A stretch of DNA of 64,000 nucleotides from Candidatus Woesearchaeota archaeon (lineage in GTDB: Archaea > Nanobdellota > Nanobdellia > SCGC-AAA011-G17 > JACPNG01). Below are positions 8,328 through 52,007 of the stretch, in pieces; positions within the stretch are counted from its first letter, which is position 1; each line of letters opens with the position of its first letter. Made by a program: the position numbers and the translations under genes. The stretch spans positions 1,157 to 65,156 of the forward strand of contig JACQNI010000078.1 of NCBI GenBank assembly GCA_016203135.1, given 5' to 3'. Under the pieces are notes generated by a model, which saw only the letters and a list, made by a program, of their open reading frames with translations, did not search any database and was not told the origin of the DNA.

Positions 8328-10880
<2,553 letters not shown>

Positions 10881-19704: not shown

Positions 19705-19817
19705 TGCTCCGGCCGAGATTCGAACTCGGGTCTCCGCCTTTCTTTGTTTTTGATTAAACCTTTCTAAAAAGTTTACTCGAAAGGGCAGAATCCTTGGCCG
19801 GACTAGACTACCGGAGC
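19705..19817 (-). tRNA. tRNA-Glu (anticodon UUC) with 38-nt intron at the canonical 37/38 position
   Basis: Sense sequence GCTCCGG..TAGTCCGGCCAAGGAT.CTGCC-CTTTCG-[38 nt]-A-GGCGG-AGAC-CCGAG-TTCGAAT-CTCGG-CCGGAGC-A. 7-bp acceptor, T-loop TTCGAAT, anticodon stem CUGCC/GGCGG. No encoded CCA. Confidence 0.75.
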
Positions 19818-24045: not shown

Positions 24046-24894
24046 TTAAAGGGATTGTCGGCTAGCTTGGTTTAGGCTTCGAGGTTTGGGACCTTGCGAC
24101 CCAGGTTCAAATCCTGGCAGTCCCATTATCTTCAATAGACCCTCTTCCTTTCTTTTATTGCTAAAACCAATATTCTTATAGTATATTTCCAAATATTTTC
24201 TTGGAATTCTAAGCAGATACAGGTCTTTTCGATTATCTCTTTTTCTTACTGTTATTCTAGGAACAATCTTCAAAATTAAAAGTATCTTTCTAAGGTCTTC
24301 TATTAGCTCCTTGGAAACAACCCCACAAGAGATATTTATGTTTTCAACAAACCCATCTGTATCCATTAAACCTCTAGCAAAACCAAATAAGAATGATTTA
24401 TTATGAGATTCTATCTCTTTGGCAAGACGTATTGAGTATACTTTTCTGTTTTCCCAATGCAAATAATCTTTAATAAAATTTGATAGATTTATTGAACTTA
24501 TTCTTATTTCAAATGAACTAGGATTTCCTTTATAATTTTTAACATACACTTTTGGATTGAGCCCCATTTTCTTGAAAAGAGAAACTAAATAATTCTTATA
24601 TTCTTTATCATCTTTATAAGAAAGGAAATACCTTGTATAGTATTTACTACTCCTACCATTCTTATCATGGTAATATGAACCATCCCCCGCAAACGAACCT
24701 ATAATTTCCCCTTTTATGAAGTCTGGAAATAGTAGATTAATTTGTTTTACTCTTTTTACTTTTTTATTTACATTTAGATTATACTGGATAGTACTAAGAG
24801 TAATATTTGTTTTCTTTTGTATCTTTCTTAAACTTAATCCATTTTTAGAAAGATTTTTTATTAATCTTATCTGAATTTTTGATAATCTCTTCAT
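24046..24894 (-). CDS. LAGLIDADG homing endonuclease (double-motif, with N-terminal HTH)
   Basis: Motifs IIGSFAGDGSYY and FLFGFARGLMDTDGFV. N-terminal HTH LSLRKIQKKTNITLSTIQ. Last 27 codons are antisense to tRNA-Pro. Confidence 0.8.
   Translation of the reverse strand: MKRLSKIQIRLIKNLSKNGLSLRKIQKKTNITLSTIQYNLNVNKKVKRVKQINLLFPDFIKGEIIGSFAGDGSYYHDKNGRSSKYYTRYFLSYKDDKEYKNYLVSLFKKMGLNPKVYVKNYKGNPSSFEIRISSINLSNFIKDYLHWENRKVYSIRLAKEIESHNKSFLFGFARGLMDTDGFVENINISCGVVSKELIEDLRKILLILKIVPRITVRKRDNRKDLYLLRIPRKYLEIYYKNIGFSNKRKEEGLLKIMGLPGFEPGSQGPKPRSLNQASRQSL
24051..24125 (+). tRNA. tRNA-Pro (anticodon UGG)
   Basis: GGGATTG acceptor pairs with CAGTCCC. Anticodon arm CGAGG-TTTGGGA-CCTTG. T-arm CCAGG-TTCAAAT-CCTGG. 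Discriminator A. 75 nt, no intron. Confidence 0.75.
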
Positions 24895-32442: not shown

Positions 32443-32715
32443 GTGATTCATATGCAAGTCGAACTTACTAGGATATCTGAAAAAGGACAGGTTGTTATAC
32501 CATCCTCATTAAGGAAGGAAATGGGAATTAAGAAATCTGATCAATTTATGATATTTGGAGAAGGGGGAACATTAATTTTAAAAAAAATAGAAACTCCTGC
32601 AATGAAGAGAACATTTGATGAAATTGTAAAACCATTACAAAAGGCAGCAAAGAAGGCAGGATTAACAAAAGAAGATTTAAAGATAGCAATTAAAGAAGTT
32701 AGAAATGTCTCCTAA
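32443..32715 (+). CDS. AbrB/SpoVT-type antitoxin (VapB-like)
   Basis: ISEKGQVVIPSSLRKEMGIKKSDQ swapped-hairpin motif. Overlaps the downstream PIN gene. Confidence 0.65.
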   Translation: MIHMQVELTRISEKGQVVIPSSLRKEMGIKKSDQFMIFGEGGTLILKKIETPAMKRTFDEIVKPLQKAAKKAGLTKEDLKIAIKEVRNVS

Positions 32716-33124
32716 ATTAGTTCTTGATACCAATACAATTGTTTCTGCATTCTTTTGGAAAGGAAATGAATCAAGGTTATTTAGGAGGGTTGAACAGGGC
32801 AAGGCAAAGTTATATACTACTATTGAAATTCTTAATGAAATTGAAGATGTAATAAGGAGACCAAAATTTAATGATGTTATGGTTAAAGCAAATTTAACTC
32901 CAGATCAGATCATACAAAAAATTGTTTCACTTTCTCATTTGGTTATTGCTCCAAAATTGAATATAAAAGTTTGCAGGGATGAAAAAGATGATAAATTTCT
33001 TGAATGTGCTGAAAGTGCAAAAGTAGATTATATCATTAGCGGAGATAAAGATTTGCTTGATTTGAAAGAATACAAAGGAATTCTTATTATCAGGACTACT
33101 AGGATATTGGAGTTGTTGAAGTAA
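32705..33124 (+). CDS. PIN-domain toxin (VapC-like)
   Basis: LVLDTNTIVSAFF ... CRDEKDDKFLECA ... IISGDKDLLDL conserved acidic positions. Confidence 0.7.
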   Translation: MSPKLVLDTNTIVSAFFWKGNESRLFRRVEQGKAKLYTTIEILNEIEDVIRRPKFNDVMVKANLTPDQIIQKIVSLSHLVIAPKLNIKVCRDEKDDKFLECAESAKVDYIISGDKDLLDLKEYKGILIIRTTRILELLK

Positions 33125-33137: not shown

Positions 33138-33150
33138 CGCCGAGGCAGGG
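33138..33150 (+). repeat. 13-bp direct repeat CGCCGAGGCAGGG identical to the 3' end of tRNA-Ser(CGA) at 48519-48531; putative distal attachment site
   Basis: Exact 13-mer, GC-rich in an AT-rich context. Left flank GATAGTA equals the 3' flank of the paralogous tRNA-Ser(GCU) gene (51881-51887), consistent with an original chromosomal tRNA flank. Confidence 0.55.
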
Positions 33151-33286
33151 CACTTAGAAATTGTTTAATGCCTTTCTTATTGGTATAGTAGATTAAGGGC
33201 TATATAAAGGTTGCTCCAGCTAGTTATTAAATAGAATAAATACCCAAAACGCAATATTAATAAACAATAATTACATTACTTAAACT

Positions 33287-33511
33287 ATGGCAAAAAACTT
33301 TCATGTAATAATAGAACAAGACGAAGACGGAGTCTATGTAGGCAAGGTATCTGAACTAAAAGGATGCCTAACTCAAGGCGATACTTTGGATGAGCTTATG
33401 AAAAACATCAAAGAAGCCATTGAATTATGCTTAGAAGTACAAGCAGAAGAAAAAACAGAAATTGAAGAGGACCAGATAAAGTTTGTTGGAGTGCAAGAAG
33501 TCGAGGTATAA
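33287..33511 (+). CDS. hicB: HicB antitoxin (second copy)
   Basis: MAKNFHVIIEQDEDGVYVGKVSELKGCLTQGDTLDELMKNIKEAIELCLE, paralogous to the 31920..32132 product. Confidence 0.7.
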   Translation: MAKNFHVIIEQDEDGVYVGKVSELKGCLTQGDTLDELMKNIKEAIELCLEVQAEEKTEIEEDQIKFVGVQEVEV

Positions 33512-33513
33512 CC

Positions 33514-33741
33514 TTGAAGCTTCCCATACTATCTTCTAAAGAAGTATGCAAATTCTTAGAGAAAGAGGGATTCATAGCTATAAGGCAGAAAGGCAGCCAT
33601 AAATTCTATAGACATCAAGATGGGAGAACAACATTAGTGCCTATGCATACAAATAAACCAATAAGCAGGGGACTTCTTAGAGGGATATTAAAAGAGATTA
33701 AGATGGAAAGAAAAGAATTTTTAAGAAAGTATGAATTTTAA
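33514..33741 (+). CDS. hicA: HicA toxin (second copy)
   Basis: SKEVCKFLEKEGFIAIRQKGSHKFYRHQDGRTTLVPMH. Confidence 0.75.
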   Translation: MKLPILSSKEVCKFLEKEGFIAIRQKGSHKFYRHQDGRTTLVPMHTNKPISRGLLRGILKEIKMERKEFLRKYEF

Positions 33742-33747
33742 TAACAT

Positions 33748-35730
33748 TCAAATGCCTTCTATTAACATCTTCTGAGCTTTTTGTATTATCCCTTGTAAAT
33801 TCTTTTCTAACTCTGCCTTGTTTTTATAACCATATTTAATTTTCATCTCCTCTGGAGATAAACTTTCTTTTCCTTCTAAACCATAGTTATCCACGAGTAA
33901 ATTATATTCTGGTTTTGTAAGGTTTTCTTTAAGTCTACTTGATACATATTCAATTAGGTCTCTTTCTATAAGTCTTTCATCGAATCTATCATAGGATGCT
34001 ATAGTGTCTTCTAATAAGGTCTTGTTTCCATCTTTATAAGTATGAACTACTTTCTGTAAAGAAACAAGATTTACGTCTTTATAATGTTGGGATATTTCAT
34101 ATTGCATACATCTATAACAGTAAGCACCAAAATCATCTAAATCAAACCCTGGATTTGTAAAATGCTTAATTGCGCCAAACAAACCAATCCTTGCAAAAGA
34201 GTTCTTGTCTTCAATAGGAGCATCTCTATAATGATTAAAAGTAAGATTTTTTATCTTACTTTCATAATGTTTCAATAAAGTTTCTATTGCTTTCTGATTA
34301 TTTCTTTTAGCTGCAAGCAGAACATGTCTAAAATCTTCATTTCCAGAGATTCCCTGTACAAATGCTCTTTCAACTAAAGATTCATCAATTTCTTCTTTTT
34401 GAAAATCTCTGTTTGCTTTAGCAATTCTTAACGTAATTGGTTTTACAAAAGTAGCTTTTGGATCTATTTCTATGTCATATTCATTTCTAAGAAGGTTTCT
34501 AATAAATAAATCATATTTCATATCCTCCAATCTTTCTCTTAAATGAGTTATGTCTCCTTCAGGAATCAGCCATATTTTTTTATCGACATCAAATCCAAAT
34601 TCTTTAATTAATCCCACGCTTTCTTCCAATTTTTTTAAACTATGTCTATTGAGATCGCTCCATAATTTTTTTGAAACATTATCTTCAGTAATTCCATTAT
34701 TAACTAACAATTCAATTTTTCCATTTCTTCTAACTTCCCATGTTGGAGGGACATTAGGTTGCTCTTTTCTCTCTGTTTTAAAATGTTCATGTACATATTC
34801 TCTAAACTTTGGTACTCCACCATAATGCTTCCATAAGTATAAATTGAGGCTTTCTTTACTAGAACTCTTAAGTTGATCTTTAGTTGGAACTACAAAATAT
34901 CTTTCTTTTCCTCCTTTATCAACAAATTTATAACCAAACCCTTGTAAATGTTCTTTTGTATAATATTTTTCACTTACTTCTGCACATATTTCTATTATAG
35001 CCTCTAAAATATTTTCTTTGCTAGCACCAGAATTGACTCCTAGTTTATGGTAAGGGGAACTGTCATTCACTCTTTTACTTGCTTCTGCAGCTCTCTTTAT
35101 AGTTGATGGACTTTCTAATAATATCCAAGGTCTGTCTGCTGGATGCAACCCGACTTCACGTATGAATCCTAACCTGCTTTCAAGAGTTTTTATTGAAGGT
35201 TTCTTATATTTTTTAAAATGATCTTCAGTTATTTTTCCAACCCCTGGTTTTATTCCATGTGCAAGTAGAAAATTTTCTCTATCCTCTTCATTATCTCTTT
35301 CGACATTATAAAAAGGGTTTGTTCTTCCTGTTTTGTCTGTTTTTGGTAGAATTAGGGATACTAATATTTTATTTCCATGAAATTCTTTAATAGCATTAGC
35401 TAAATCTGTGTAATTTTGAGATACCAGAAAATCTATAGAGAAAGATTTTCCACTTAATTCACCTTTATATGTGTTGTATATCCTAAGTAATTCATGTCTA
35501 GTTCTTTCATAATCTTCATATTGGTTCTCCTGAGAAGGTTGTTCTTGAGTTTGTAAAACCTCTTCAAAAGGGAATTCTGGTTTTTCAGTAGTGCTATAGG
35601 CTAAACCTTCTTTAATTTGCCTAGCTTTTTTAATAGATCTCTCTAGTTCTAGTTCTTGTTTCCCAGGAAATCTCTTCCTTCCAACCCTTCTACTATTGAG
35701 CCTTCTCCTTCTTTTCTTGGTTATTCCCAT
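33748..35730 (-). CDS. large (660 aa) protein with C-terminal sigma-70-family-like region (regions 1.2/2 and 4) and Arg-rich N-terminus
   Basis: AFVQGISGNEDFRHVLLAAKRNNQKAIETLLKHY resembles region 1.2-2.1 (A..GD..A...L...N.RLV..iAk.Y). IEDKNSFARIGLFGAIKHFTNPGFDLDDFGAYCYRCMQYEI resembles region 2.2-2.4 (DLIQEGNIGLMKAVEKFD...F.TYA..WIRQAI). LTKPEYNLLVDNYGLEGKESLSPEEMKIKYG..AELEKNLQGIIQKAQKML resembles the region 4 HTH. The roughly 430-aa N-terminal part is unassigned. Confidence 0.5.
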   Translation of the reverse strand: MGITKKRRRRLNSRRVGRKRFPGKQELELERSIKKARQIKEGLAYSTTEKPEFPFEEVLQTQEQPSQENQYEDYERTRHELLRIYNTYKGELSGKSFSIDFLVSQNYTDLANAIKEFHGNKILVSLILPKTDKTGRTNPFYNVERDNEEDRENFLLAHGIKPGVGKITEDHFKKYKKPSIKTLESRLGFIREVGLHPADRPWILLESPSTIKRAAEASKRVNDSSPYHKLGVNSGASKENILEAIIEICAEVSEKYYTKEHLQGFGYKFVDKGGKERYFVVPTKDQLKSSSKESLNLYLWKHYGGVPKFREYVHEHFKTERKEQPNVPPTWEVRRNGKIELLVNNGITEDNVSKKLWSDLNRHSLKKLEESVGLIKEFGFDVDKKIWLIPEGDITHLRERLEDMKYDLFIRNLLRNEYDIEIDPKATFVKPITLRIAKANRDFQKEEIDESLVERAFVQGISGNEDFRHVLLAAKRNNQKAIETLLKHYESKIKNLTFNHYRDAPIEDKNSFARIGLFGAIKHFTNPGFDLDDFGAYCYRCMQYEISQHYKDVNLVSLQKVVHTYKDGNKTLLEDTIASYDRFDERLIERDLIEYVSSRLKENLTKPEYNLLVDNYGLEGKESLSPEEMKIKYGYKNKAELEKNLQGIIQKAQKMLIEGI

Positions 35731-35870
35731 TTAGGCTTATAAGTTGGCTATATTTATAAAACTTTTGTTATTAGTTTCTTTTTAGTAGTAACTAAATAGG
35801 CTCTGTCCTAAATCTTAATATCTATCAATTTTAAGATAGAGTCATCTATAGGCTTTACTGCAGAACCTAA

Positions 35871-36092
35871 ATGATATTAATATATAAACCATTAAATTTT
35901 ATCAATAATATGGATAGGTACTTACGAGAATATTTCTTAGTCTTTCTTTCTGCAATGGATGGTGCAATAATTGGGGCTTTATTTAATCTAACGGTTAATA
36001 TTAATTTCTCTGGAGCAGCCATTTTTTTATTATTTAGTTTCTTTATTATTATAACTATTTTTGTTGGATTAATTGCTTTTCGTATAATTTAG
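35871..36092 (+). CDS. small membrane protein (73 aa)
   Basis: Two predicted hydrophobic helices. Weak. Confidence 0.25.
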   Translation: MILIYKPLNFINNMDRYLREYFLVFLSAMDGAIIGALFNLTVNINFSGAAIFLLFSFFIIITIFVGLIAFRII

Positions 36093-36157
36093 GAAGAAAA
36101 ATTGAAAAATGAGATTATAATGATCATGGTGAGTCTAATAAATCAGAAGTTTATTAT

Positions 36158-37198
36158 TTAAGATAATGTGGTTGTTTTAATGTAGTCTATTAGTTTTTTC
36201 CCTCTATTATATAATTCAGTATAAGTAATAATTTCTACATTGCTCAGATGGCTTGAGAAGATTCTTCTGTCTTGAATTTTATCTGTTTTTTGTTTACCTA
36301 TAACAATAAGAGATTTTGGTTTAAAGATATTTTTAATATTTTTAGTATCACATATGTGTAGATAAGTAAAAACTTGACCGATTGCTTCTGAAAACTTTTG
36401 ATTTGGTTTGCTTCTTTTTTCAGTTCTTCGGTCAAATAGATTCTCATTTGGGCCTTTTAACTCTACTAAATCATAAAAGTTATCATATCTTTGTAACATT
36501 ATATCAAATTGATAATCTTTTTTGCCAGGTGGGAACCAAACTTTATGCTCAATTCCAATATATTCTAAACCAAAAATCCAAAAGATATCTTTATTAGCAA
36601 TAAAATAATTGTGAACATCGGTCTCTGTTGATTTAGAACTATCGATAAGAGTCTTGAATTTTTTAAGCTTATTCTCGTAGTCTTTGACATTAGACTTCAT
36701 TATGTTAAATCGTCTTTTGAAAATATTTAACTGGACAATATTTGATGATTCTAGGTCTTTAATTTTTTTGAATTTTGCATTGAGCTCACTAATCTCATCT
36801 TTTTTCCTTAAAAAGTTTTTATATTTTTCTTTTGGAAGAACAACAAAATTTGGGTTGCTAAGCCCATCTCCAATAATTGCGTTTACTATTTCAGAAGTGA
36901 GGGACCATTCTTCCATTGATCTTATATTGTAACTTCTAAAAATTCTCCAGTATTTAATTTTCTTATTTTTCTTATCATTAATTGCTCTCCATTTTGTTAC
37001 TCTAATAACTCTTTTATCTGTCAATTTGCCAGAAGTTCTATCTCTTTCGTAGCATTCATCTACACTATAAAGCCAGACACTATTACTTGATAAAAGAACT
37101 GGATATCTGTTAATTAATTCATAGAACTCACTTTCAATAAATGTCCTCTCATTGCAAGTTAAAATTTTATCCATAACATTCTGGATGGGGTGTAGCAT
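36158..37198 (-). CDS. Shedu-like (DUF4263) PD-(D/E)xK nuclease, candidate defence gene
   Basis: C-terminal YQFDIMLQRYDNFYDLVELKGPNENLF...KFSEAIGQVFTYLH...PKSLIVIGK matches the DUF4263 pattern (D..D..ELK / ..A.sQ...Y / iIVIGr). Variable N-terminal domain. Confidence 0.5.
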   Translation of the reverse strand: MLHPIQNVMDKILTCNERTFIESEFYELINRYPVLLSSNSVWLYSVDECYERDRTSGKLTDKRVIRVTKWRAINDKKNKKIKYWRIFRSYNIRSMEEWSLTSEIVNAIIGDGLSNPNFVVLPKEKYKNFLRKKDEISELNAKFKKIKDLESSNIVQLNIFKRRFNIMKSNVKDYENKLKKFKTLIDSSKSTETDVHNYFIANKDIFWIFGLEYIGIEHKVWFPPGKKDYQFDIMLQRYDNFYDLVELKGPNENLFDRRTEKRSKPNQKFSEAIGQVFTYLHICDTKNIKNIFKPKSLIVIGKQKTDKIQDRRIFSSHLSNVEIITYTELYNRGKKLIDYIKTTTLS

Positions 37199-37356
37199 TT
37201 AAATTTATTGAAAAATAACCTAATTTCCCTGAAATTGATTTGCTCTAAAAATTTTGTAACCGTTAAATTGCCGTTAGGCGTCCAGAACGAAATATGAACT
37301 TATAAGGCGAACTGGGGAGTGAAACGACAAATAGTATGACGCAGATGGCTACCTTA

Positions 37357-38097
37357 TTAATTGTATGTGAACTTCCTTATTTCAATTAACAAAAAAAGAA
37401 TGCCTGCCCAAGCTAATAATAAAAGAAGATTTTTAGCAAGTACTATCCAAAAATTTGGTCTAACATATATTTCTGCAGTGATTTCGTTCCATCCTTTCAC
37501 TTGTAGTTCTGGGCAATCTTTTATCGGATTAGATTTTAAATACTCAACAACCATATCATCAGGAGGATATCTAATTTTATTGTTAATTCTTAAGTTGATT
37601 CCTTTTTTTGTATTGTGAAGTTCACATTTCTCTTTTCTAGGATACACATAAATATCTCTTTCACTTTTTCCATTCATACTAGTTTCATAAATAGTAAAAA
37701 TGGTTGGAGATTCAAGGGTTGTTGGAATTTTACAAATATATAATTTAGCATCAAAATTATGGTAGCAAACATCATGCCAACCTAATCCTATTACATTAAA
37801 TAAATTATTAAAAATAGTTCTGATCACTGATGGATTTTTTAGTTCATCAGTTTGAATTGAAAAAATATTATTTTCTAAAGTGATAATATCTGAATTTTTA
37901 AAATAGTCATAACTATAATTAAAACTATCTATTTGTGAGGCGCTTTCTTTATAATTTATTGTTGTATTAGCATAAATTAAACGCTGCTTTTCAAAAGGTG
38001 TAATGATAAATAGGAATGAAATCAAAATTGGAAGTATTAGTATCAATAAATTTATCCACTTAATTCTTTTTTTATCTTTATTTTTCATAATAGACAA
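37357..38097 (-). CDS. membrane protein with N- and C-terminal TM helices (246 aa)
   Basis: Hydrophobic segments near both ends. Confidence 0.4.
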   Translation of the reverse strand: MSIMKNKDKKRIKWINLLILILPILISFLFIITPFEKQRLIYANTTINYKESASQIDSFNYSYDYFKNSDIITLENNIFSIQTDELKNPSVIRTIFNNLFNVIGLGWHDVCYHNFDAKLYICKIPTTLESPTIFTIYETSMNGKSERDIYVYPRKEKCELHNTKKGINLRINNKIRYPPDDMVVEYLKSNPIKDCPELQVKGWNEITAEIYVRPNFWIVLAKNLLLLLAWAGILFLLIEIRKFTYN

Positions 38098-38198
38098 ATA
38101 ATCTGATTAAATATAAGTTTTTGCATATTTCGGGTGGTCGTTGAGTAATATTTCACATAATAGGTTATTTTTAATTATTTTATTTAATTCTACAAATT

Positions 38199-41100
38199 TT
38201 ATTCTTTTTTTTTAAATAATCTTTTAATTCTAAACCTTAATTTTCTTACTATTCTTGTGCGAGTTAAAAATGTTAGTGTCAAAATTAACACAACCCAAGA
38301 GATTATAGTAGACCATACCCCATTATTTCCAGAAAGAACACCTATTGCAGCCCCAGTTGGAGGTCCTGGATTAGTAAAGAATGCTTTAATTCCATTCCAT
38401 ACTTTAGCAAAGAATCCTTGGGTAGTTTGTTCTTGAGCTTCTAAAACTGGTTCTTCTTTAGGTTCTTCTTGTAATGTTTCAGGAACCGCTTCTTGTGGTT
38501 CTTCTCCATCAGGTATAGGAAAATCAAATGTTGGAGTTGGTTGAGGTGTAGGCGTTACACTTCTAGAGCTACTACTTCCCCCACCACCGCCTCCCCCTCC
38601 TCCCCCAGAAGATCCGCCTGGAGATCCAGTATCTACTCCAGTACTACAACTTTGGGATTCTTGGGGTTTATTATTTGTAGTTCCACATAAATTAGAGTCA
38701 GTACAGGTTCTAGTTTGGGTTCCACTAGTACAAGAGCTCCATTCAGAACATGTCCATGACTCATCGCAAGATTCTTGTTCTTTAATTCCTGAATGTTTTA
38801 AACCGCTTATTTTATACGAGTTATTTACAATCTCACAACTGTAAGTAAAGTTTGAACCTGGGCATAAAACTAATAATTCATCTTCTTTAATACAAGAATT
38901 ACTAATCTCTGTTAGATTAGTAATTTCTTGATCTTTAAGGCATAGTTTACTTGTATTTGATATAATGTCTACGTATACCGTCTTATTACTTCCATTCAGA
39001 TCTAAACCACGAATAAGAAGAGAACCAAAACTACTGTTATTTTCTTGTTTTTTAATAGTTAAATTCTTTATGTTGATTGTAATATTTGGTAATTCTATTC
39101 TTGTTTTATTATTTTCTTTTAAAATTAATTTATCCTTTATTTTTCCTAGATTTATATTATCTAAATTATTTTTAATTTCAGTTATATTTCCAATAAAGCC
39201 ATCATTATCAAAATCACAGGAATAAGTGTTGTTTTGAGGTCTACCTAATAAATCTGAATTCAAACCAGTCTTATTATAACAAGAATTATTGTCAATGAAA
39301 TAATTTTTAAATATTTCATCTTTTTGACATGGTGTAAATGATTCTATCCATTTTGGAGTGCAAAAATCGCATATTAAAGGTTCAAATTCAGAAAAATTTC
39401 CTAGATATAAGTCAGATTCTAAACCAGTTTTATTATAACAACTAAAGGTATCATTGACTAAATTACATGATTGTGTATCATTTGCTGAACATTTATTATA
39501 CCCCCCACAAGTAAAATTCGGTTTACAAAAATCACATTTCCCAATGATGTTCAATGGTTTGTTTTTATTATCATTACAACTATTAATATCAAAATAATTT
39601 TTAAATTGTTGATCATTAGAACTACATTCTGACCAGGTGTTATTTAAGACCCAATTTGGAGTGCATAAATTAATTTCATAAAGACTAGTTTCTGCGGCTT
39701 TTATTTCTACTTTTCTGTTAGTGTCTTGACCATTTACAAATAACGAATAATTTCCTTCTGGAATAGTTAAGCCATAATCTTCCTTATTATCATCATAATT
39801 AAAGTGATAAAATATTTTTGATGTTGGGTTTTGTGTAAATTGATACTCTATTGAACTATTAACAATTTTGACTTGACCATTAAAGGTTTCATTTACTTTA
39901 ATCAAAGCAGTCCCTTCTCCAAAAGGATTATTCGCATTATTTGAATTAATATATACTTCATCATGGTTAAGATAACTACCAAAATTATTTTGATTAGTCA
40001 TAAATTGGTCTATCAAACCAATCACGTTATCTAAGTTAGTTGTTGTGTTTAGATAATCTTCAATTAGAGGTCTTAGAACTGAAGACCAAGCCTGTCCCGT
40101 ATAATGGTCTAAAATCATATCCCAAAAACCATGTTCCCATAATTCTATTTGTGTATATATTGTTTTGTGATTTCTATTTATAACTATTAATGGAAGATTG
40201 TTATTTATCCTTGATGCACTAGAGACTGAAACTAAATCATCTGAGTCATCAGCTTCAAAAGGTAAACATGGGATATCTTGATTTTTACCAGCAATAATCA
40301 AAGTATCAACATTTGATGTGGTGTTTTTTATATTCAACTTCCAAATAAAATCACTACCTATCGCAAGGTCTGTATATGCTGGCGCATCTTGATTCCAACT
40401 AATAAAAGGTTTTCCAAACAATAACCATCCGCCGACCTCATTTATTACTTGACACGCTAAATTCATGCCTTCATCATATATTATTCTATTTGCTAAATAT
40501 GAACCATAATTCGGTGGGGCAAGCATTAGCAACTTACTCACATCATCATGATAAGATATGTTTTTACCGTTTGGGTCGGTAGCAATTCCTTCGATGTAAG
40601 ACCTTGTTACTAATCCCCCCATACTATGAGATACAATTTTAACTTTTGAAGAAGTGTAAAAAGAATTAACATAAGAAATTCCATCAGACAACAAAGTACC
40701 AGAATAATCTATCTTTTGGTCATTTGGATAATAAAATTTCCAAACATCATAACCTTTTGCGATTAATTTATCTTCAAAGTGTCCATCAAAATATCCACTT
40801 TCTCCATTTAATCCATGAACTAAAATTAATGGTTCATTATTAACATTCAAATTCTTTCTTGGTGCTTCTAAGAATGAAACCTGATAAAAACTAGAACTTA
40901 TGCTTGCAACAGAAAAAGCGTTGGTATTGATAGAATTTGTAGTTTCTAACAATTCATTAAGTTCTTTTTCTTCTTTAAACTTTTCAAATGGTTTTATCTC
41001 TAGTGAAGAGTTTATTTTATAATATTGGTAATTGAAAGATTCTTTTATGAGGTTTGAACTTGGAACTAAATAAAAACTTTCTTCACTACCTCTTTTCCAC

Positions 41101-42482
41101 ATTAGATTGGGAGATTCTCTCTCAATTAAGTGAACATATTCAATAGTGATATTATGTTCTCCTTCTGTTAAATGACTAGGAAAAGAAACAACTTCATCTG
41201 AATAAAGAGAGTCTATAACCATTTCTTCATCTAATATTATCTTATACCCTCCCAAAATTGTAGCGTTAAAGTAATATGAATTTTCATTCCCAATCATCAA
41301 TATACCCTTCCAGGAGTTATACAATATTTCCTCTTCTTTTTCTACGTCTTGTTCTTCAGGGTCTGTGCTACTAGCCGAGAAAGTTTTGGTTAAGTCGTCA
41401 GTTTCTGATTCTGTTAACAATGGTACTATTTTATTTTTAATTAAATTAAGTTGCGAGTTTTGTTCTTCTGTTAAGTGAATTTCTTCATCATCTTTTATAT
41501 TCTCATTTTGAATATTTTCAGAAGATGTTAAATTGTTTATTTCAAAACTATCAGAGGTTTGTTTCCAATAAGGTTTATCTGTATGAATTCTAACTCTTTG
41601 GTCTATATAGTCTAACCCTTTCTTGTATTTATCATTGTCATTTGTGTAACTATTTGTCCAACTAGCAATAGGGTTATTGTTGTTGTCTAATGCAAAAACT
41701 TTAATGTTCCAATCAAATAAAATATTTGAGTTCCATTCTGTTTGCCTATTAAATTCAGGGTTGTATTTGAAATTACCATTAGAGTCAGATTGAACATAAT
41801 CAGCAAAAACTGGATTTGTAATTCTTCCCAATAATGAAGAGTCATCATAAACAACAAAAAATAAACTTATGTTTGAGTAAGGTTGTGAACTGAAAGTATT
41901 TTGTTGATTTGTAACAACATTAAAGACTTGTCCCTTTATTGCATAATTACAAAAGTTTTGATTAACATTCCAGTTTTCATAATCAAAACAACAACCATCC
42001 CCTAAAGAACCTCCTCCGCCCGCAGAAAAAATAGGAATACCTTCACAATATAATTTATTTTGGCATGAGGAATCTAAGTTACAATCACCTTCATTATGTT
42101 CTAAATTACCACTAGCTTTAAAATCCATATTCCAAGAATTTCTTTGTACATTTCCAATCTTTACTTTTGCATAATATTCTGCGTTGTTAAATCCATCTTC
42201 TCCATTAGCACCACCCCATTTTGCGATTATACGGTTATTCTTCACTCCACCAGAAAAATTAGCGATAAAATCATCATCAAGAAAGTCGTCTTCCCATATC
42301 TCAATTATAACAGAAGTTCCGTCAGAATAACCAGAAGTCTTAGCTAAAACATATCTTTCTTCAAAAGATTTTGTTAAATATTTATCCCAATCAACGCTGT
42401 CAATAGTAGCCGCATTAACAAAACTACTAAGTGAAATTAATAGGATAAAAGTAATCAAGTAACTTTTATAAACCATACCCAA
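38199..42482 (-). CDS. giant secreted / surface-anchored protein (1427 aa) with alpha/beta-hydrolase (lipase-like) domain, Cys-rich modules, poly-Gly/Ser linker and C-terminal TM anchor
   Basis: Signal peptide. LILVHGLNGESGYF and VSHSMGGLVTRSY (lipase GxSxG with upstream HG). GSSGGGGGGGGGGSSSSRSVTPTPQPTP linker. C-terminal hydrophobic helix followed by a KR-rich tail. Confidence 0.7.
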   Translation of the reverse strand: MGMVYKSYLITFILLISLSSFVNAATIDSVDWDKYLTKSFEERYVLAKTSGYSDGTSVIIEIWEDDFLDDDFIANFSGGVKNNRIIAKWGGANGEDGFNNAEYYAKVKIGNVQRNSWNMDFKASGNLEHNEGDCNLDSSCQNKLYCEGIPIFSAGGGGSLGDGCCFDYENWNVNQNFCNYAIKGQVFNVVTNQQNTFSSQPYSNISLFFVVYDDSSLLGRITNPVFADYVQSDSNGNFKYNPEFNRQTEWNSNILFDWNIKVFALDNNNNPIASWTNSYTNDNDKYKKGLDYIDQRVRIHTDKPYWKQTSDSFEINNLTSSENIQNENIKDDEEIHLTEEQNSQLNLIKNKIVPLLTESETDDLTKTFSASSTDPEEQDVEKEEEILYNSWKGILMIGNENSYYFNATILGGYKIILDEEMVIDSLYSDEVVSFPSHLTEGEHNITIEYVHLIERESPNLMWKRGSEESFYLVPSSNLIKESFNYQYYKINSSLEIKPFEKFKEEKELNELLETTNSINTNAFSVASISSSFYQVSFLEAPRKNLNVNNEPLILVHGLNGESGYFDGHFEDKLIAKGYDVWKFYYPNDQKIDYSGTLLSDGISYVNSFYTSSKVKIVSHSMGGLVTRSYIEGIATDPNGKNISYHDDVSKLLMLAPPNYGSYLANRIIYDEGMNLACQVINEVGGWLLFGKPFISWNQDAPAYTDLAIGSDFIWKLNIKNTTSNVDTLIIAGKNQDIPCLPFEADDSDDLVSVSSASRINNNLPLIVINRNHKTIYTQIELWEHGFWDMILDHYTGQAWSSVLRPLIEDYLNTTTNLDNVIGLIDQFMTNQNNFGSYLNHDEVYINSNNANNPFGEGTALIKVNETFNGQVKIVNSSIEYQFTQNPTSKIFYHFNYDDNKEDYGLTIPEGNYSLFVNGQDTNRKVEIKAAETSLYEINLCTPNWVLNNTWSECSSNDQQFKNYFDINSCNDNKNKPLNIIGKCDFCKPNFTCGGYNKCSANDTQSCNLVNDTFSCYNKTGLESDLYLGNFSEFEPLICDFCTPKWIESFTPCQKDEIFKNYFIDNNSCYNKTGLNSDLLGRPQNNTYSCDFDNDGFIGNITEIKNNLDNINLGKIKDKLILKENNKTRIELPNITINIKNLTIKKQENNSSFGSLLIRGLDLNGSNKTVYVDIISNTSKLCLKDQEITNLTEISNSCIKEDELLVLCPGSNFTYSCEIVNNSYKISGLKHSGIKEQESCDESWTCSEWSSCTSGTQTRTCTDSNLCGTTNNKPQESQSCSTGVDTGSPGGSSGGGGGGGGGGSSSSRSVTPTPQPTPTFDFPIPDGEEPQEAVPETLQEEPKEEPVLEAQEQTTQGFFAKVWNGIKAFFTNPGPPTGAAIGVLSGNNGVWSTIISWVVLILTLTFLTRTRIVRKLRFRIKRLFKKKE

Positions 42483-42843
42483 TACCCCTAAAGTTTATTA
42501 TATCAATCCCCAAAAAATGAAGTGGCCATAAAATTAAAGTAATTAAGAAATCAGAAGGTTTTTTAAGATACAAATAAAAATACCAAGATATTCGTGTAGG
42601 CTCATCTATATGGAACTTATCAAATCCATCTACACACCATTGAGCTAGAGGAACAGGATTATCACGATTAGATTCTATACATCGGTTTTCCCAGTAGGAG
42701 TTTCCATTATCTTCTAAACTATCCTCTTCAACTAAGAAGTGATTGTAGTAAGCATTCGCCCTAAATATAGTAAAAAGAAGTCCGATAAAGAGATATAATA
42801 AAAGTGTTAAAACTAGTTTCTTTTTCATTTCATTTTCACTCAT
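42466..42843 (-). CDS. membrane protein (125 aa)
   Basis: N-terminal TM helix. Immediately upstream of the giant protein gene. Confidence 0.35.
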   Translation of the reverse strand: MSENEMKKKLVLTLLLYLFIGLLFTIFRANAYYNHFLVEEDSLEDNGNSYWENRCIESNRDNPVPLAQWCVDGFDKFHIDEPTRISWYFYLYLKKPSDFLITLILWPLHFLGIDIINFRGIGYGL

Positions 42844-42927
42844 TATTACCAGATAAATGCTTTTAGGTTAATATTGCAGTAAGCTAAGATATTTATTAAT
42901 CTTATTATTTTTAAGAATAAAAAAAGC

Positions 42928-43185
42928 CTATTTCTGTAATAATTTGTTTAATATCTTTCTTCCTTGCTTAGTGATACTTACTATAAAATATGGCCTACCA
43001 GTAGCCTTATGGTTTTCTTTTTTAGTTATATTGATAGCCCAAAATTTTTCAAGCTCTGTACAATTAGTTTTTATAGTCCTAAATCCAGTATTGATTTTTC
43101 TTTCTAGTTGAGCAAAGGTTAGGTCCTTTTTGTTTAATTCTTTTAGAATAAGCATCTTGATATCTTTGCTTTGCCTTTTAGTCAT
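42928..43185 (-). CDS. winged-helix transcriptional regulator
   Basis: 85-aa basic protein with HTH-like LTFAQLERKINTGFRTIKTNCTELEK. Confidence 0.45.
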   Translation of the reverse strand: MTKRQSKDIKMLILKELNKKDLTFAQLERKINTGFRTIKTNCTELEKFWAINITKKENHKATGRPYFIVSITKQGRKILNKLLQK

Positions 43186-43236
43186 ACTACAATAAGGCAG
43201 TAAGCTTTATATAGTGCTAACTCATAATATTGCAGT

Positions 43237-44151
43237 ATGAAGGGATGGGTAGACTTGCTAAAAAGCCTAAAATGGTATGAAAAGTTAGTTTATTTTCTTG
43301 GTTTATTATTGGTTATCTTATTAACTCAATATTTCATAAGTGGTTATATACATTCAAGTGTTAACTATGAAGATTTTGATATTAGTGCTACTTGGGAAAA
43401 CAAAATTGATGATACCTTTTATTTTGATTATAGTGAGGGAGTATTTCATTCTTGGTTTGAATTAAAAGTTACTTCTCTTAGAGATGATTTATACTACAGG
43501 GTTTATGATAAATCTATAAATATTGAGCTAACAGAGTATGGTGGTGTCAGAAATTTAGCTAGACTTAATCAGGGTGCTGTTTATGTTGATATTTTTAATG
43601 CTGATGCTAAATTAAAAACAATTGACCAATTAAAAGAAATTGAAGTCTGTGTTTCGTCTAAACAAGATTTTACAAAAAGTACAGAAGGAATAGTATGTAA
43701 ATCTACTTTCTTACAACCAAGAAATATAAATATTGAAGTAAATTCAGATCCATTAACCTTTATTAGCTCTAAATCCTCTTTTGAACAACAATATAAGTGG
43801 CTAACTGTTAAAAATATAGGAGATACAACAATAAATGTTTGTGTGTTCCTTCCATCATATGCATCATATGCTAATGAAAAATTAGATTACCCAAGATATA
43901 AACCACAATACGGAACTCGGTGGGGATTTGGACCTGAAGGAGAAGGAACTCAAAATTGTGAAATATTGGAACCAAGTGAGAGCTCTAAGTACGAAGTAGC
44001 TGTTTTTGTAGGAAATGTGGGTGAGTTTGATACACCATTAGGCACACATACATCTCAAGGAATTGTGGGTGCTGTATTTGGTGAATATCTTGGGTTAGGT
44101 TATGCACATTATAAAAAGTCGTTTACTTTAGAAACAACTGTTATTCAATAA
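43237..44151 (+). CDS. membrane-anchored hypothetical protein (304 aa)
   Basis: N-terminal TM helix, rest beta-rich. Confidence 0.4.
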   Translation: MKGWVDLLKSLKWYEKLVYFLGLLLVILLTQYFISGYIHSSVNYEDFDISATWENKIDDTFYFDYSEGVFHSWFELKVTSLRDDLYYRVYDKSINIELTEYGGVRNLARLNQGAVYVDIFNADAKLKTIDQLKEIEVCVSSKQDFTKSTEGIVCKSTFLQPRNINIEVNSDPLTFISSKSSFEQQYKWLTVKNIGDTTINVCVFLPSYASYANEKLDYPRYKPQYGTRWGFGPEGEGTQNCEILEPSESSKYEVAVFVGNVGEFDTPLGTHTSQGIVGAVFGEYLGLGYAHYKKSFTLETTVIQ

Positions 44152-44210
44152 AAAAATTCATTGTAATTAATAAATTCAAAAATAAAATCTTTCCTCTTTT
44201 TAACAATATA

Positions 44211-44576
44211 TTAATTTGTGATTCTGGGAATGGACATTGTTCTTTTGAACCTCTTTAATTTATCATAATCAATTTCTTCTGCTTTATTTACTTGAAATAC
44301 CTCGGCTTCAGGATATCGCTTCTTAAATTCTGTTAAATCAGACCTATTAGACTCTTGTTGAGGTTTTGAGGAGCCACATTCACATTCCACTGCTATTGGT
44401 TTAAGGTAAGGCCTATCTTTATGTGGAAATCCTACAGTATCAATAAAATGTACATTTCCTTCTCTAAAAATTGGGAATTCCTTAAAACATTGGTGCGTTG
44501 ATTTCAATCTATTATGAACGCCTTGCACGCATTTTTTATGCTCTTTTTGTTGCCCCATTTTCACTAATCCATTCAT
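44211..44576 (-). CDS. hypothetical protein (121 aa)
   Basis: ORF only. Confidence 0.3.
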   Translation of the reverse strand: MNGLVKMGQQKEHKKCVQGVHNRLKSTHQCFKEFPIFREGNVHFIDTVGFPHKDRPYLKPIAVECECGSSKPQQESNRSDLTEFKKRYPEAEVFQVNKAEEIDYDKLKRFKRTMSIPRITN

Positions 44577-44799
44577 TTAAATTGTTAAATTCTTTAAAAC
44601 ATGGTGATTTCTTATTTTTGTCTTTTTTATGAATTACGTAGTAACACTTCTCCTTTTGTGCACCATCTTCAAAACGTAGACGTTCGAGAATTATCCATTT
44701 CTTATCTTTTATTGTGTTAATTTTTCCTTTTCTATTTTTAGTTAAATAATAAGATATTAAAACTACTGTCAAAGATAATATAGCTAAAATAAAATACAT
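44536..44799 (-). CDS. hypothetical membrane protein (87 aa)
   Basis: N-terminal TM helix. Confidence 0.3.
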   Translation of the reverse strand: MYFILAILSLTVVLISYYLTKNRKGKINTIKDKKWIILERLRFEDGAQKEKCYYVIHKKDKNKKSPCFKEFNNLNEWISENGATKRA

Positions 44800-44800
44800 A

Positions 44801-45208
44801 TTACGCCTCTCCTAGGTATCTGTCTGTATTAATTATTTCCCTCTTTACTTCAACAATTTTATCCATATACTTAGGTTTACTGGACTTAATAAGTGGACCT
44901 TCTTCACTATTAAACCCATACCATAGATTATAATATTTTTTAGCTCCTTCAGAAAATTTATAATAGTAAACCCCTTTTTTATACCTTCGAGTAAACCATC
45001 CTTGTCTATACATGCGCCAGAGTTTTAAGCGTGTTGCATTACCACTTATAATGTTATTAAATAATTCGCAAAGATTATTGGAAGTAAACTCACTATTCAA
45101 ATCATAATTTCTCCTAATGAACTGAAGGAATTCTGGAGTCCACTTTATTACTGCCTTGATTGTTAATCCAGAATATCTATCTGTATAATGCTTTATTGCA
45201 TAATCCAT
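44801..45208 (-). CDS. hypothetical protein (135 aa)
   Basis: ORF only. Confidence 0.3.
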   Translation of the reverse strand: MDYAIKHYTDRYSGLTIKAVIKWTPEFLQFIRRNYDLNSEFTSNNLCELFNNIISGNATRLKLWRMYRQGWFTRRYKKGVYYYKFSEGAKKYYNLWYGFNSEEGPLIKSSKPKYMDKIVEVKREIINTDRYLGEA

Positions 45209-45232
45209 TTTATTTAAATAAATAATAATGGA

Positions 45233-46057
45233 TTATAAATTGCGCCTATTTATTTTGGAAACATCAAGCTTTTTTAAGATTTCTTGTAGAAGTTTAGAAT
45301 TCATTGATTGATATTTAAGTATCAGTTCTTCATTATGTTTATGTTTGATCGTTTCATCGTATAATTCCAGGAATCTATCTTCATTTATTAACATATTGAA
45401 GATAGCTTCTAATTTGATCGGGAGCTTTAGTTTATGCTCGGATCTTAGTGACTTAGCTGATTTATTGTGATAGAGTTTAAACTGTTCTGATAGTGAATCT
45501 ATGCTTATACTATTTAAGCCGTCTAATTTAATACCTTCCATATCATTATTAATTTCTATGCTAGTTAAATAAACCCTAGAGGGTACTGGTTCTTCATTGC
45601 AAAAATTATGAATCAATTCACAAAATAGTAAATAGCAGGTATAAATCGAAGTTATATTCAAAGGATATTGTGTAGAAACCCTTAAACTGGCTTTTTTACT
45701 AGTACTACCAATTTCAAATTTTAGGTTAAGTAATGAATTTCCCAAATTTTTTGTTATTCTTTGACCGTTATATTTTGGTAATTTATAAGAAAGGATTGCA
45801 TTGTGAAAATTCCATTTAAAAATAGCACCATGCCTATCATTATCAACTAAGACATAAAGTCCAGCGTACCCCTTATGTTTTACTCCATCCATATCAGGAA
45901 GCATTGACTTTATTGTATTATGGTTGATCCCAGTATAATAACTTATGGCTTTGGGGGTGAGCCCTTCGGGATGATTTTTAAGGGCTTGCATAATTTTATT
46001 AATTTTTTCTTGTTTATTCCTGTTGTTAGTTGTAACTTTGGGTTGCTTATGACTCAT
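45233..46057 (-). CDS. hypothetical protein with N-terminal HTH-like region (274 aa)
   Basis: GLTPKAISYYTGINHNTIKSML HTH-like. Confidence 0.35.
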   Translation of the reverse strand: MSHKQPKVTTNNRNKQEKINKIMQALKNHPEGLTPKAISYYTGINHNTIKSMLPDMDGVKHKGYAGLYVLVDNDRHGAIFKWNFHNAILSYKLPKYNGQRITKNLGNSLLNLKFEIGSTSKKASLRVSTQYPLNITSIYTCYLLFCELIHNFCNEEPVPSRVYLTSIEINNDMEGIKLDGLNSISIDSLSEQFKLYHNKSAKSLRSEHKLKLPIKLEAIFNMLINEDRFLELYDETIKHKHNEELILKYQSMNSKLLQEILKKLDVSKINRRNL

Positions 46058-46385
46058 TTTTAATCCGATAATTTATCTTTATTCCATGCCCATAATGGAT
46101 ATTTATAAAACCTAAATCCTTTAAAAAGAGCAAAACATCCCACACTTGCTTTTTTTGTATTGAAAAAGAGGACGCAAGCTTTGAAATTGCATCAGGAAAG
46201 CTTATTATCCCAGCTTTTGAGGTTTTACATTCTGCTAATCTTTCCAAACATATTAAGTATAGGCCTTTTCTTGGCATTCTTAATCTTAGGAGATAATTAG
46301 GATGAACATTTGCTAAATCCTGTTTTTCAATTTTAGATTTATTTTTAATATTATTAATTTTTTCGATCCATAATTGGTTTGTCAT
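46047..46385 (-). CDS. hypothetical protein (112 aa)
   Basis: ORF only. Confidence 0.3.
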   Translation of the reverse strand: MTNQLWIEKINNIKNKSKIEKQDLANVHPNYLLRLRMPRKGLYLICLERLAECKTSKAGIISFPDAISKLASSFSIQKKQVWDVLLFLKDLGFINIHYGHGIKINYRIKNES

Positions 46386-46444
46386 TTAAATGACAAACCT
46401 TATATACTTATATAGCCTTTTTATTAAAAAAACGATAAGTCGAT

Positions 46445-47293
46445 ATGATGAAAGAATCTATTAAAATAAAAAGAGATAGAAAATTAAATAGGTTTGTTAT
46501 AAAATCCCTAATTAAAAGACCTTTGTCAGCTGATCAGATTCTTGATAAAATTAAACTATCTAAAAAGTTTAAAATTAACACCCTACCTGGATTAGAAAAA
46601 TATCATTTAGCATATCTAGAAAAGAAAAATGTTATACTTAGATTAGATAGAAAAGCTAAAAATTTTATAAATAATTTATCTGTTGAAGACTTTATGGAAA
46701 AAACTTGGTTTAGGTGGGAGAGAAGTATTAAGAAAAATAAATGGGGAAGTAAAAGTAATAATCCTTATCATTCATATTATTTTGCTACTCCTATAACAGC
46801 TAAATGGACAAATATTTTTAATAAAATTATTAGAGAGAGAATTTTAGTTAAACTCAGCGAATTTATTACTGATAGGGATGAGATTGAGTTATGTTTGAAT
46901 GAAATTATTAATACTATGAAAAAAATTGAAACCCTTTCTAGGAAAAAAATAAAAATTTATAAAAGATTACAACAAGAAACCGATGATTTTTTAGGAGTCA
47001 AGGGAATTAATTATTTAGAAAGCAAAATTAAAAAAATCAAAAAATTTCAAAAAAAAGACGGTATGTTTTTACCTTTTGGATTTGCTGATTATATATTATC
47101 TGATTTTGATAGTTTTATGAGACCTATGGATGATATTAAATTTGTTCTCTTTAGCAGACTACTTAATAAATTAGGTACCCTTCACTATTTATTAAATCAA
47201 AGAATTAAAATAATAAGTATTTTAGATTATGAATTTAAAAAAGAAAATTTTGTTGAACCCAATGAATATCTTAAGAATTTAACTTCTTCTTAA
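46445..47293 (+). CDS. hypothetical protein (282 aa)
   Basis: ORF only. Confidence 0.35.
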   Translation: MMKESIKIKRDRKLNRFVIKSLIKRPLSADQILDKIKLSKKFKINTLPGLEKYHLAYLEKKNVILRLDRKAKNFINNLSVEDFMEKTWFRWERSIKKNKWGSKSNNPYHSYYFATPITAKWTNIFNKIIRERILVKLSEFITDRDEIELCLNEIINTMKKIETLSRKKIKIYKRLQQETDDFLGVKGINYLESKIKKIKKFQKKDGMFLPFGFADYILSDFDSFMRPMDDIKFVLFSRLLNKLGTLHYLLNQRIKIISILDYEFKKENFVEPNEYLKNLTSS

Positions 47294-48488: not shown

Positions 48489-48518
48489 GACTAAAGAAGG
48501 CGTTAAACAAAATCAAAG

Positions 48519-48614
48519 CGCCGAGGCAGGGATTTGAACCCTGATATCCTTGCGGAAACCGGTTTTCGAGATTCGCCTTTTATCCAGCGCACTACCGGAT
48601 TATGCGACCTCGGC
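48519..48614 (-). tRNA. tRNA-Ser (probable anticodon CGA), long variable arm, 12-nt intron at non-canonical position 30/31
   Basis: Sense sequence GCCGAGG-TC-GCAT..GTGC-G-CTGG[ATAAAAGGCGAA]T-CTCGAAA-ACCGG-TTTCCGCAAGGATAT-CAGGG-TTCAAAT-CCCTG-CCTCGGC-G. Collinear with the intron-less tRNA-Ser(GCU) at 51888..51971 apart from the 12-nt insert. Confidence 0.65.
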
Positions 48615-51832: not shown

Positions 51833-51887
51833 TAATTGATAAGAAGTTTTATTGGTTTATATTGTTTCTTATTCATGTTTGATAGTA

Positions 51888-51971: not shown

Positions 51972-52007
51972 ATATAGAAAAAGGGAAAAAATTCTTTTTA
52001 AACCTTT

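Follow-up and report, generated by a model that had tools for sequence, protein, structure and literature searches.

A divergent sigma-70-like module fused to a long N-terminal extension and encoded on a probable integrated element of a Woesearchaeota genome

The DNA analysed here, a stretch of 64,000 nucleotides from contig JACQNI010000078.1 of a Candidatus Woesearchaeota archaeon, a tiny symbiotic organism (the stretch is hereafter called the window), encodes on its minus strand a 660-residue protein in which a C-terminal part resembling bacterial sigma-70 factors follows an N-terminal part of 455 residues that is unrelated to them. The protein is identical in sequence to the nr entry MBI4157067.1, which is labelled 'helix-turn-helix domain-containing protein' and assigned to Candidatus Woesearchaeota archaeon. 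The open reading frame (ORF) and the N-terminus and motifs quoted in a preliminary description of this DNA are all found in the ORF listing, where the protein begins with MGITKKRRRRLNSRRVGRKR and also contains IGLFGAIKHFTNPGFDLDDFGAYCYRCMQYEI and YGLEGKESLSPEEMKIKYGYKNKAELEKNLQGIIQKAQKML; no paralog occurs within the 64-kb window. Direct inspection of the sequence upstream of the ATG revealed a purine-rich stretch followed by TTTATAAATA, which looks like the B recognition element (BRE) and TATA box of an archaeal leaderless mRNA, a weak resemblance in A+T-rich DNA given that the genome has 30% G+C. The features of this sigma-fusion gene, including comparisons with its single full-length homolog P0002 (described below), are the following:

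33748..35730, minus strand: complete ORF of the sigma-fusion protein, ATG start, 660 amino acids plus stop codon
35751..35760, minus strand: promoter-like TTTATAAATA, 21-30 nt upstream of the ATG, read from the sequence
35665..35730, minus strand: basic N-terminal tail, residues 1-22, net charge +11, with RR.G.KRF.G..E shared with P0002
35047..35301, minus strand: predicted helical repeat unit 1, residues 144-228, 55% identity to P0002
34495..34740, minus strand: predicted helical repeat unit 2, residues 331-412, a divergent copy of unit 1
33751..34362, minus strand: sigma-70-family module, residues 457-660, with a region-1.2-like segment, sigma2, a region-3.2-like linker and sigma4
34069..34269, minus strand: sigma2 (regions 2.1-2.4), residues ~488-554, 45% identity to P0002
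33766..33924, minus strand: sigma4, residues ~603-655, with region 4.1 = EYNLLVDNYGLEG

Judged by profile comparisons, residues ~457-655 are homologous to the sigma-70 family, though divergent. When the C-termini of the two archaeal proteins were aligned by hhalign with a set of 28 sigma factors, from which both archaeal family members had been left out, a match with a probability of 99.7% and E=8.4e-26 was obtained over 183 columns (residues ~457-637), and this match takes in the equivalent of Sigma70_r2. An exhaustive HMMER search with a profile of the 660-residue protein and P0002 against 1.84 billion cluster representatives (E<=1e-3) returned 60 proteins: besides both members of the family there were 58 with lengths of 150-350 amino acids, every one of which aligns to the C-terminal module alone. 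Pfam Sigma70_r2 is present in all of the ten best non-family matches that were scanned, and Sigma70_r4 also in eight of these ten. The best relative in this search (E=1.8e-18) is P0003, a protein from a Clostridia metagenome-assembled genome (MAG) that bears the name of a sigma-70 family factor and has Sigma70_r2 at E=4.9e-14. Thus, the HMMER search led to sigma factors only and not to an unrelated helical domain, the outcome that the preliminary description had named as fatal to its proposal of a sigma-like C-terminus. We also noted that the gene for P0003 is chromosomal, being one of a tandem pair of sigma genes (9287..10666) between lepA and the rplU-rpmA operon, and that P0003 has no significant Sigma70_r4 match in the precomputed Pfam table.

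The sigma homology surfaced only with models of the NCBIfam or PHROGs collections or with profiles. The NCBIfam models for SigK, SigE and SigH match residues 455-656 at E=4e-6 to 3e-3, far under their cut-offs, and PHROG 351 ('RNA polymerase sigma factor') matches the 660-residue protein at E=7e-3 and P0002 at E=5e-7. Searching PDB sequences with the two-sequence profile gave SigK (8vjl, E=0.0022) and a SigB-type chain as the top two matches; a search of PDB sequences with the whole protein returned nothing meaningful. The top 50 Foldseek matches of a low-confidence full-length AlphaFold model were all sigma factors, none of them individually significant, and the sole Pfam match of the 660-residue protein is to HTH_16 (a helix-turn-helix, HTH, family), at 22.2 bits versus a cut-off of 22.

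At the level of individual regions, the alignment shows a region-1.2-like segment and region 2.1, followed by a region 2.2 (IGLFGAIKHF) that aligns with IGLIKAI.TFD of SigK-like sigmas and by a region 2.3/2.4 signature that reads F.AYCYRCMQYEI here versus FSTYA.RCIENEI in SigK-type factors. Taken together, the sigma2 motif of the family, GL.GAI..F...(5)..F..YC.[RK].MQYE[IV], is equivalent to GLIKAI.TFD...FSTYA.RCIENEI of SigK-like sigmas. The module also contains a region-3.2-like linker, VSLQ..DG..TLLEDTI, which is to be added to the regions 1.2, 2.1-2.4 and 4 that had been listed before. Region 4.1, EYNLLVDNYGLEG, aligns with REY.II..RYGL.G of sigma factors, as does the first HTH helix, and the alignment ends at YGYKN, directly before the region 4.2 recognition helix. 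At the position of this helix the protein carries KNKAELEKNLQ and P0002 carries KKESELESRL, versus ISRSYISRIE in SigK-like sigmas. Thus, the order and spacing of sigma regions claimed for the C-terminus hold, to an extent that chance would not explain, for ~200 residues (the hhalign match given above) but not for the recognition helix of region 4.2. Because this helix is unaligned and has conserved acidic residues, canonical recognition of a -35 element is unlikely, having probably been lost or changed. In the first AlphaFold2 model, this part of the protein forms helices at residues 585-603, 606-616, 626-633 and 638-658, with a predicted local distance difference test (pLDDT) score of 67-81, which we read as a sigma4-like arrangement, as far as the model goes. 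By its motifs and its best-matching models, the C-terminal module is of the group 3, SigK/SigE/SigH-like subtype.

The N-terminal 455 residues were described earlier as unassigned, and they remain so: they match no Pfam family (as part of the whole protein or as fragments) and no PDB sequence, and the exhaustive HMMER search of 1.84 billion representatives yielded no protein that matches the N-terminal part only. The order of segments is a basic tail, an acidic low-complexity linker, a helical segment of ~70 residues, repeat unit 1, a segment of ~100 residues and repeat unit 2. Comparison of the protein with itself by hhalign detected the internal repeat (residues 148-220 versus 335-406, E about 1e-4); a hidden Markov model (HMM) of five repeat units backs it, and P0002 carries an extra tandem copy of unit 1. 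Both units are modelled by AlphaFold2 with pLDDT of about 80, versus a mean of 61.7 for the whole model (from a two-sequence alignment) and less than 50 for residues 229-330 between the repeats. A repeat-unit profile gave 0 matches in 5.8e9 proteins, with even the source protein being missed. An mTERF-like sequence pattern had been spotted in the repeats before any fold search was made, and the models are suggestive of an mTERF-like fold; because of this predicted fold, nucleic-acid binding is suggested for the N-terminal part. Two other readings of this part were considered. Degenerate extra sigma domains are ruled out by hhalign (probability <1%), and a reading of the repeats as ordinary HTH domains would have to rely on sub-threshold matches to HTH_11 (E=0.015) and HTH_30 (E=0.36) in one repeat unit of P0002 only.

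The fusion architecture was found in one other protein, P0002 (779 amino acids), among about 15 billion proteins, and the two are 34-38% identical over their full length. No relative of the fusion was found in IMG/VR, in the GTDB species genomes or in JGI metagenomes, nor at any of 80 DPANN and bacterial metK loci. A search of 50,697 GenBank phage records by tblastn gave one weak match (E=5e-6), confined to the sigma part (residues 471-634), so that the homologs in viruses or phages for which the preliminary description had recommended a search come down to none in IMG/VR and this single partial match. P0002 is encoded on a contig with 40% G+C, just downstream of metK and ahead of membrane and sugar-nucleotide genes. 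The MetK protein encoded beside it has its nearest matches, at 70-75% identity, in MAGs of Nanoarchaeota and Woesearchaeota, and both hosts therefore appear to be DPANN archaea. The P0002 locus shows neither synteny nor shared neighbours with the window, and no integrase lies in the 13.7 kb of it that were seen; the suggested co-occurrence of such proteins with an integrase is therefore not borne out by the sole homolog.

Conservation between the two members is uneven, with 55% identity in repeat 1, which is the most conserved segment of the protein, 45% in sigma2, which is the best-conserved part of the sigma module, and 25-35% in the linkers. The motifs VLLAAKR, HYRD, DK.SFA, LDDF..YC and MQYE are invariant in the family, both reading frames are intact (660 and 779 codons) and the N-termini are conserved. 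Because conservation peaks in repeat 1 and sigma2 and falls in the linkers, it argues for purifying selection on both modules.

The sigma-fusion gene lies inside a probable tRNA-integrated element that spans about 33138..48531 (15.4 kb), near its distal end and between a HicAB pair and a Shedu gene:

48519..48614, minus strand: intron-containing tRNA, 40.9 bits with the Rfam tRNA model, missed by ARAGORN
48519..48531, no strand: 13-bp direct repeat CGCCGAGGCAGGG, 3' end of this tRNA, integrase-proximal core of the attachment (att) site
47271..48488, minus strand: tyrosine recombinase/integrase, 405 amino acids, Phage_integrase E=8.6e-26
38199..42482, minus strand: 1427-residue ORF with a lipase domain (Lipase_2 E=1.9e-8; class-2 lipase / alpha-beta hydrolase)
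36158..37198, minus strand: Shedu SduA (DUF4263) nuclease gene, SduA_C E=5.7e-16, PADLOC SduA E=1e-15
33287..33741, plus strand: HicB-like antitoxin and HicA-like toxin, just inside the distal att repeat
33138..33150, no strand: second copy of CGCCGAGGCAGGG, intergenic, 13 nt after the PIN gene, probable distal att site
32705..33124, plus strand: PIN-domain gene, just outside the distal att repeat

The integrase combines a SAM-like domain at its N-terminus with a zinc ribbon at its C-terminus. Its gene lies 30 nt away from the intron-containing tRNA, of which the last 13 nt recur exactly once in the window, at 33138..33150. As a 13-mer match arose in 3 of 300 composition-matched shuffles and the repeat is short, the boundary is given as probable. 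The tRNA itself, with its long variable arm and a similarity of 79% to the 3' half of tRNA-Ser(GCT), is probably Ser(CGA) once freed of a non-canonical intron of 12 nt close to position 30/31, and it probably served as the integration target. The isotype Phe(AAA), called by ARAGORN in intron mode, is unlikely for this tRNA in view of the long variable arm and the similarity to tRNA-Ser. The tRNA-Ser(GCT) at 51887..51972 was also considered as the attachment site and rejected, since no repeat of at least 14 nt from this tRNA occurs elsewhere in the window. Hence, the earlier placement of the gene within a tRNA-Ser-integrated element holds as far as integrase, tRNA and 13-nt repeat make the element probable, but the tRNA concerned is the one at 48519..48614 and not the Ser(GCT) called by ARAGORN.

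As to the remaining content of the element, Pfam identified the integrase, the Shedu protein and the lipase-domain protein, a PHROGs scan of 10 element ORFs matched HicA alone, and several further ORFs are without a match. No virus hallmark genes (capsid, terminase, portal) were found in the element with libraries that cover archaeal virus proteins poorly. Inspection by eye of the 1427-residue ORF revealed Cys-rich repeats, a Gly/Ser/Pro-rich stalk and hydrophobic segments at the N-terminus and near the C-terminus, which are probably a signal peptide and a membrane anchor, and the product possibly acts at the cell surface in contact with host cells. A search by way of the flanking genes revealed no empty site; it matched only contigs of the same sample series, one of which reproduces the insertion. 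Because its only homolog resides in a chromosomal-looking setting, the sigma-fusion gene does not appear to be a core gene of the element. Two side observations concern the element: its Shedu gene represents an anti-phage defence gene in a DPANN archaeon, and in two sister samples (SRR12113424 and SRR12113420) the Logan contigs stop where the attachment tRNA has its 5' end (window 48605-48613), perhaps because tRNA sequences entangle the assembly graph or because the population is heterogeneous at this site.

Its gene content marks the host as an archaeon: genes for aIF5B and the RNA polymerase (RNAP) subunit Rpo7/E' (both from Pfam) are present in the window, as are those for ribosomal protein S6e and aIF2-gamma (identified from their translations), and no bacterial RNAP gene was seen in the 64 kb. 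Because of these archaeal markers, the intron-containing tRNAs and a uniform G+C content of about 30% across the window, mis-binning is excluded at the contig level. Over 38654-52224, a stretch that includes the junction on the tRNA side and the right half of the element, the window is matched at 99.99% by an independent Logan contig; the full contig has 19.3 kb and, by coordinate arithmetic, should reach about 32.9 kb. Elsewhere in the window, the following features were recorded:

5255..5950, minus strand: chromosomal extracytoplasmic function (ECF)-type sigma-like ORF, 231 amino acids, Sigma70_r2 E=8.6e-13, Sigma70_r4_2 E=6e-4
11283..12563, plus strand: 426-residue chromosomal ORF with a basic N-terminus and several HTH-looking segments
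14157..15002, minus strand: 281-residue ORF with a weak DDE transposase match, E=0.007
19705..19817, minus strand: tRNA with an insertion (probable intron), Rfam 44.8 bits, missed by ARAGORN
24046..24894, minus strand: LAGLIDADG homing-endonuclease-like ORF (Pfam), overlapping tRNA-Pro 24051..24125 on the opposite strand
55821..56438, plus strand: LAGLIDADG homing-endonuclease-like ORF, recognised by eye only

The ORF at 5255..5950, whose Sigma70_r2 match exceeds the Pfam cut-off, is the chromosomal ECF sigma gene that had been reported for this DNA. The end of the aIF2-gamma ORF overlaps with it, gyrA and gyrB genes of bacterial type adjoin it, and it probably belongs to the Woesearchaeota sigma-70 set of Castelle et al. 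(PMC8204110). Because it is of the ECF type and shows no specific relationship to the 660-residue protein, the two sigma genes represent separate acquisitions. For the ORF at 11283..12563, no Pfam match was found and tblastn revealed no relation to the 660-residue protein, and the ORF at 14157..15002 is possibly an insertion sequence (IS) element.

On the basis of these findings, we favour, at a probability of roughly 0.6, the interpretation that the protein is a transcription regulator that binds DNA in a sequence-specific manner and uses an exapted sigma scaffold. Under this interpretation, a chimeric protein specific to Woesearchaeota-like (DPANN) archaea would have come about through acquisition of a group-3 sigma module by horizontal transfer from a Bacillota-like source and its fusion behind a lineage-specific N-terminal part of ~455 residues. 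DNA contacts could then be provided by the helical repeats along with a surface of sigma2 that resembles region 2.3/2.4, and the remodelled sigma4 helix might serve a new DNA or protein partner. It is also conceivable, though less likely, that sigma2 retains the ability to dock on the clamp coiled-coil of the RNAP. The gene itself occupies a cargo position at the far end of the probable ~15.4-kb tRNA-integrated element.

Several points weigh against a DNA-binding regulator of this kind. No archaeal RNAP is known to use sigma factors. The Pfam scan of the 660-residue protein gave no Sigma70_r2, r3 or r4 match, the NCBIfam SigK model scores 26.2 bits versus a cut-off of 252 with no curated sigma model being passed, and the helix that replaces that of region 4.2 has a one-residue insertion and two conserved glutamates. 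In the N-terminal part, the mTERF-like fold call derives from AlphaFold models that were built from a two-sequence alignment and have mean pLDDT of 55-62, and Foldseek with the N-terminal model ranked MTERF4 and MTERF1 first at E values that were all at or above 1. Even at E<=10, PF02536 (mTERF) found no match in the full-length sequence, in the N-terminal fragment or in individual repeat units, and the repeat profile retrieved neither an mTERF chain nor any other informative match from PDB sequences. Moreover, mTERF proteins (MTERF1, MTERF3, MTERF4 and the mitoribosomal mS93) are made of ~30-residue motifs, whereas the unit found here has ~80 residues and five helices. The conservation statistics are thin, with n=2 members. 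In addition, the passages of Castelle et al. that deal with the sigma genes of Woesearchaeota assign no function to them (PMC8204110).

Among the alternatives, the sigma2 domain could dock on the clamp coiled-coil of Rpo1/A' while the repeats bind or open DNA, in which case the protein would be a working initiation-type factor. The clamp coiled-coil is conserved across multisubunit RNAPs, and in archaeal Rpo1/A' it is bound by TFE and Spt5. Preservation of sigma2, which with its equivalents of regions 2.2, 2.3 and 2.4 is the best-conserved portion of the sigma module (45%), and of the region-3.2-like linker fits such a role, as do the location of the gene on a probable mobile element and the resemblance of the predicted N-terminal repeat fold to mTERF1, which unwinds DNA. 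By analogy with phage sigmas and with RNAP-binding proteins of archaeal viruses, host transcription might then be redirected or blocked for the benefit of the element. Nonetheless, we regard an initiation factor as unlikely, as there is no precedent for an archaeal RNAP with a sigma factor, the polar residues with which region 2.2 of sigma70 contacts beta' have, by our reading of the alignment, no conserved counterparts in this protein, and P0002 is not on a recognisable element. It is rather improbable that a mobile-element protein docks with its sigma2 on the archaeal RNAP clamp and grips or opens DNA with mTERF-like repeats. Another doubtful account holds that the sigma module is an inert relic of horizontal transfer, with all activity residing in the N-terminal part or with the gene being neutral cargo. 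The failure of all curated sigma thresholds, the loss of the recognition helix, the position of repeat 1 as the most conserved segment and the rarity of the family (two members among about 15 billion proteins, none in GTDB species genomes, JGI metagenomes or IMG/VR) are in line with it, but the identity of 45% in sigma2 versus 34-38% overall, together with the invariant motifs, indicates purifying selection, and both ORFs (660 and 779 codons) are intact.

The position of the gene at the cargo end, between HicB/HicA (33287..33741) and Shedu SduA (36158..37198), raises the question of whether the protein belongs to or controls an island of anti-virus defence or toxin-antitoxin genes, acting with HicAB and Shedu and not in general transcription. 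This is highly unlikely, since no PADLOC model matches either the 660-residue protein or P0002, P0002 has no HicAB or Shedu neighbours, and Shedu and HicAB are self-contained systems; a known defence-system component was rejected for want of a PADLOC match. An assembly or binning artefact, in which a bacterial or phage gene was misjoined to archaeal DNA, would accommodate the bacterial origin of the closest sigma relatives. It can nevertheless be virtually discounted, because the gene resides 20 kb inside the contig, with archaeal markers to its left and chromosomal genes to its right, in a window of uniform G+C (about 30%) with which an independent Logan assembly agrees at 99.99% identity. 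Furthermore, the upstream region looks like an archaeal promoter, the contig of P0002 carries a DPANN-like metK, and the N-terminal 455 residues have no bacterial relatives.

The protein provides a compact test case in which a constrained sigma2 is combined with a rewritten -35-reading helix and a second, probably nucleic-acid-binding module, the pattern expected if a sigma scaffold was put to a new DNA-binding or polymerase-binding job. Were clamp docking combined with mTERF-like repeats to prove true, this would be the first sigma-type (or mTERF-type) factor on an archaeal/eukaryotic-type polymerase. Confirmation of the mTERF-like fold would likewise provide a prokaryotic example of a fold otherwise described only from eukaryotic organelles; mTERFs are organelle-specific proteins of plants and animals (PMC8998825). 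With a family of two members, the finding serves as a lead for biochemistry and does not establish a general principle.

That DPANN archaea, which transcribe with a polymerase relying on TBP, TFB and TFE, can carry bacterial-type sigma genes is a published and unexplained oddity, and the earlier opinion that a sigma-like protein on an archaeal mobile element is undescribed has to be withdrawn in view of two reports of such genes. Sigma-70 genes (fam00359) are 'particularly prevalent in Woesearchaeota' according to Castelle et al. (2021, PMC8204110), who, in the passages devoted to these genes, exclude mis-binning, report that anti-sigma factors were not found and leave the question of mechanism open. 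Two rpoS-like genes have been reported on DPANN viruses, one of them a prophage (2025, PMC12647753). The fusion architecture, for which no description was found, is hence the new part.

Comparison with these and other known systems brings out both likeness and difference. The C-terminal module shares with bacterial SigK, SigE and SigH the order and motifs of a region-1.2-like segment, regions 2.1-2.4, a short region 3.2 and region 4.1. By contrast, SigK, SigE and SigH have ~220-240 amino acids, whereas the present protein has 660 and an unrelated N-terminal extension of 455 residues; an acidic or neutral helix replaces ISRSYISRIE, the curated cut-offs are far from reached, and the protein resides in an archaeal cell with an archaeal RNAP and not in a sporulating bacterium. 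Like the Woesearchaeota fam00359 genes, as far as the account of Castelle et al. covers them, it is a bacterial-type sigma homolog in a DPANN genome and has no anti-sigma partner, but those genes are classed as sigma-70 without mention of a fusion in that account, whereas the present family of two members is SigK/SigE/SigH-like and fused (PMC8204110). With the rpoS-like genes it has in common that a divergent sigma-family gene is carried on a DPANN mobile genetic element; those genes, however, were annotated as rpoS and described as auxiliary genes of identified viruses, unlike a SigK/SigE/SigH-like fusion on an element in which no viral hallmark was found (PMC12647753). Finally, sigma factors of Bacillota phages are sporulation-type homologs on mobile elements that reprogram host transcription (PMC9429907); they are standalone proteins acting on bacterial RNAP, whereas the 660-residue protein is a fusion in an archaeon.

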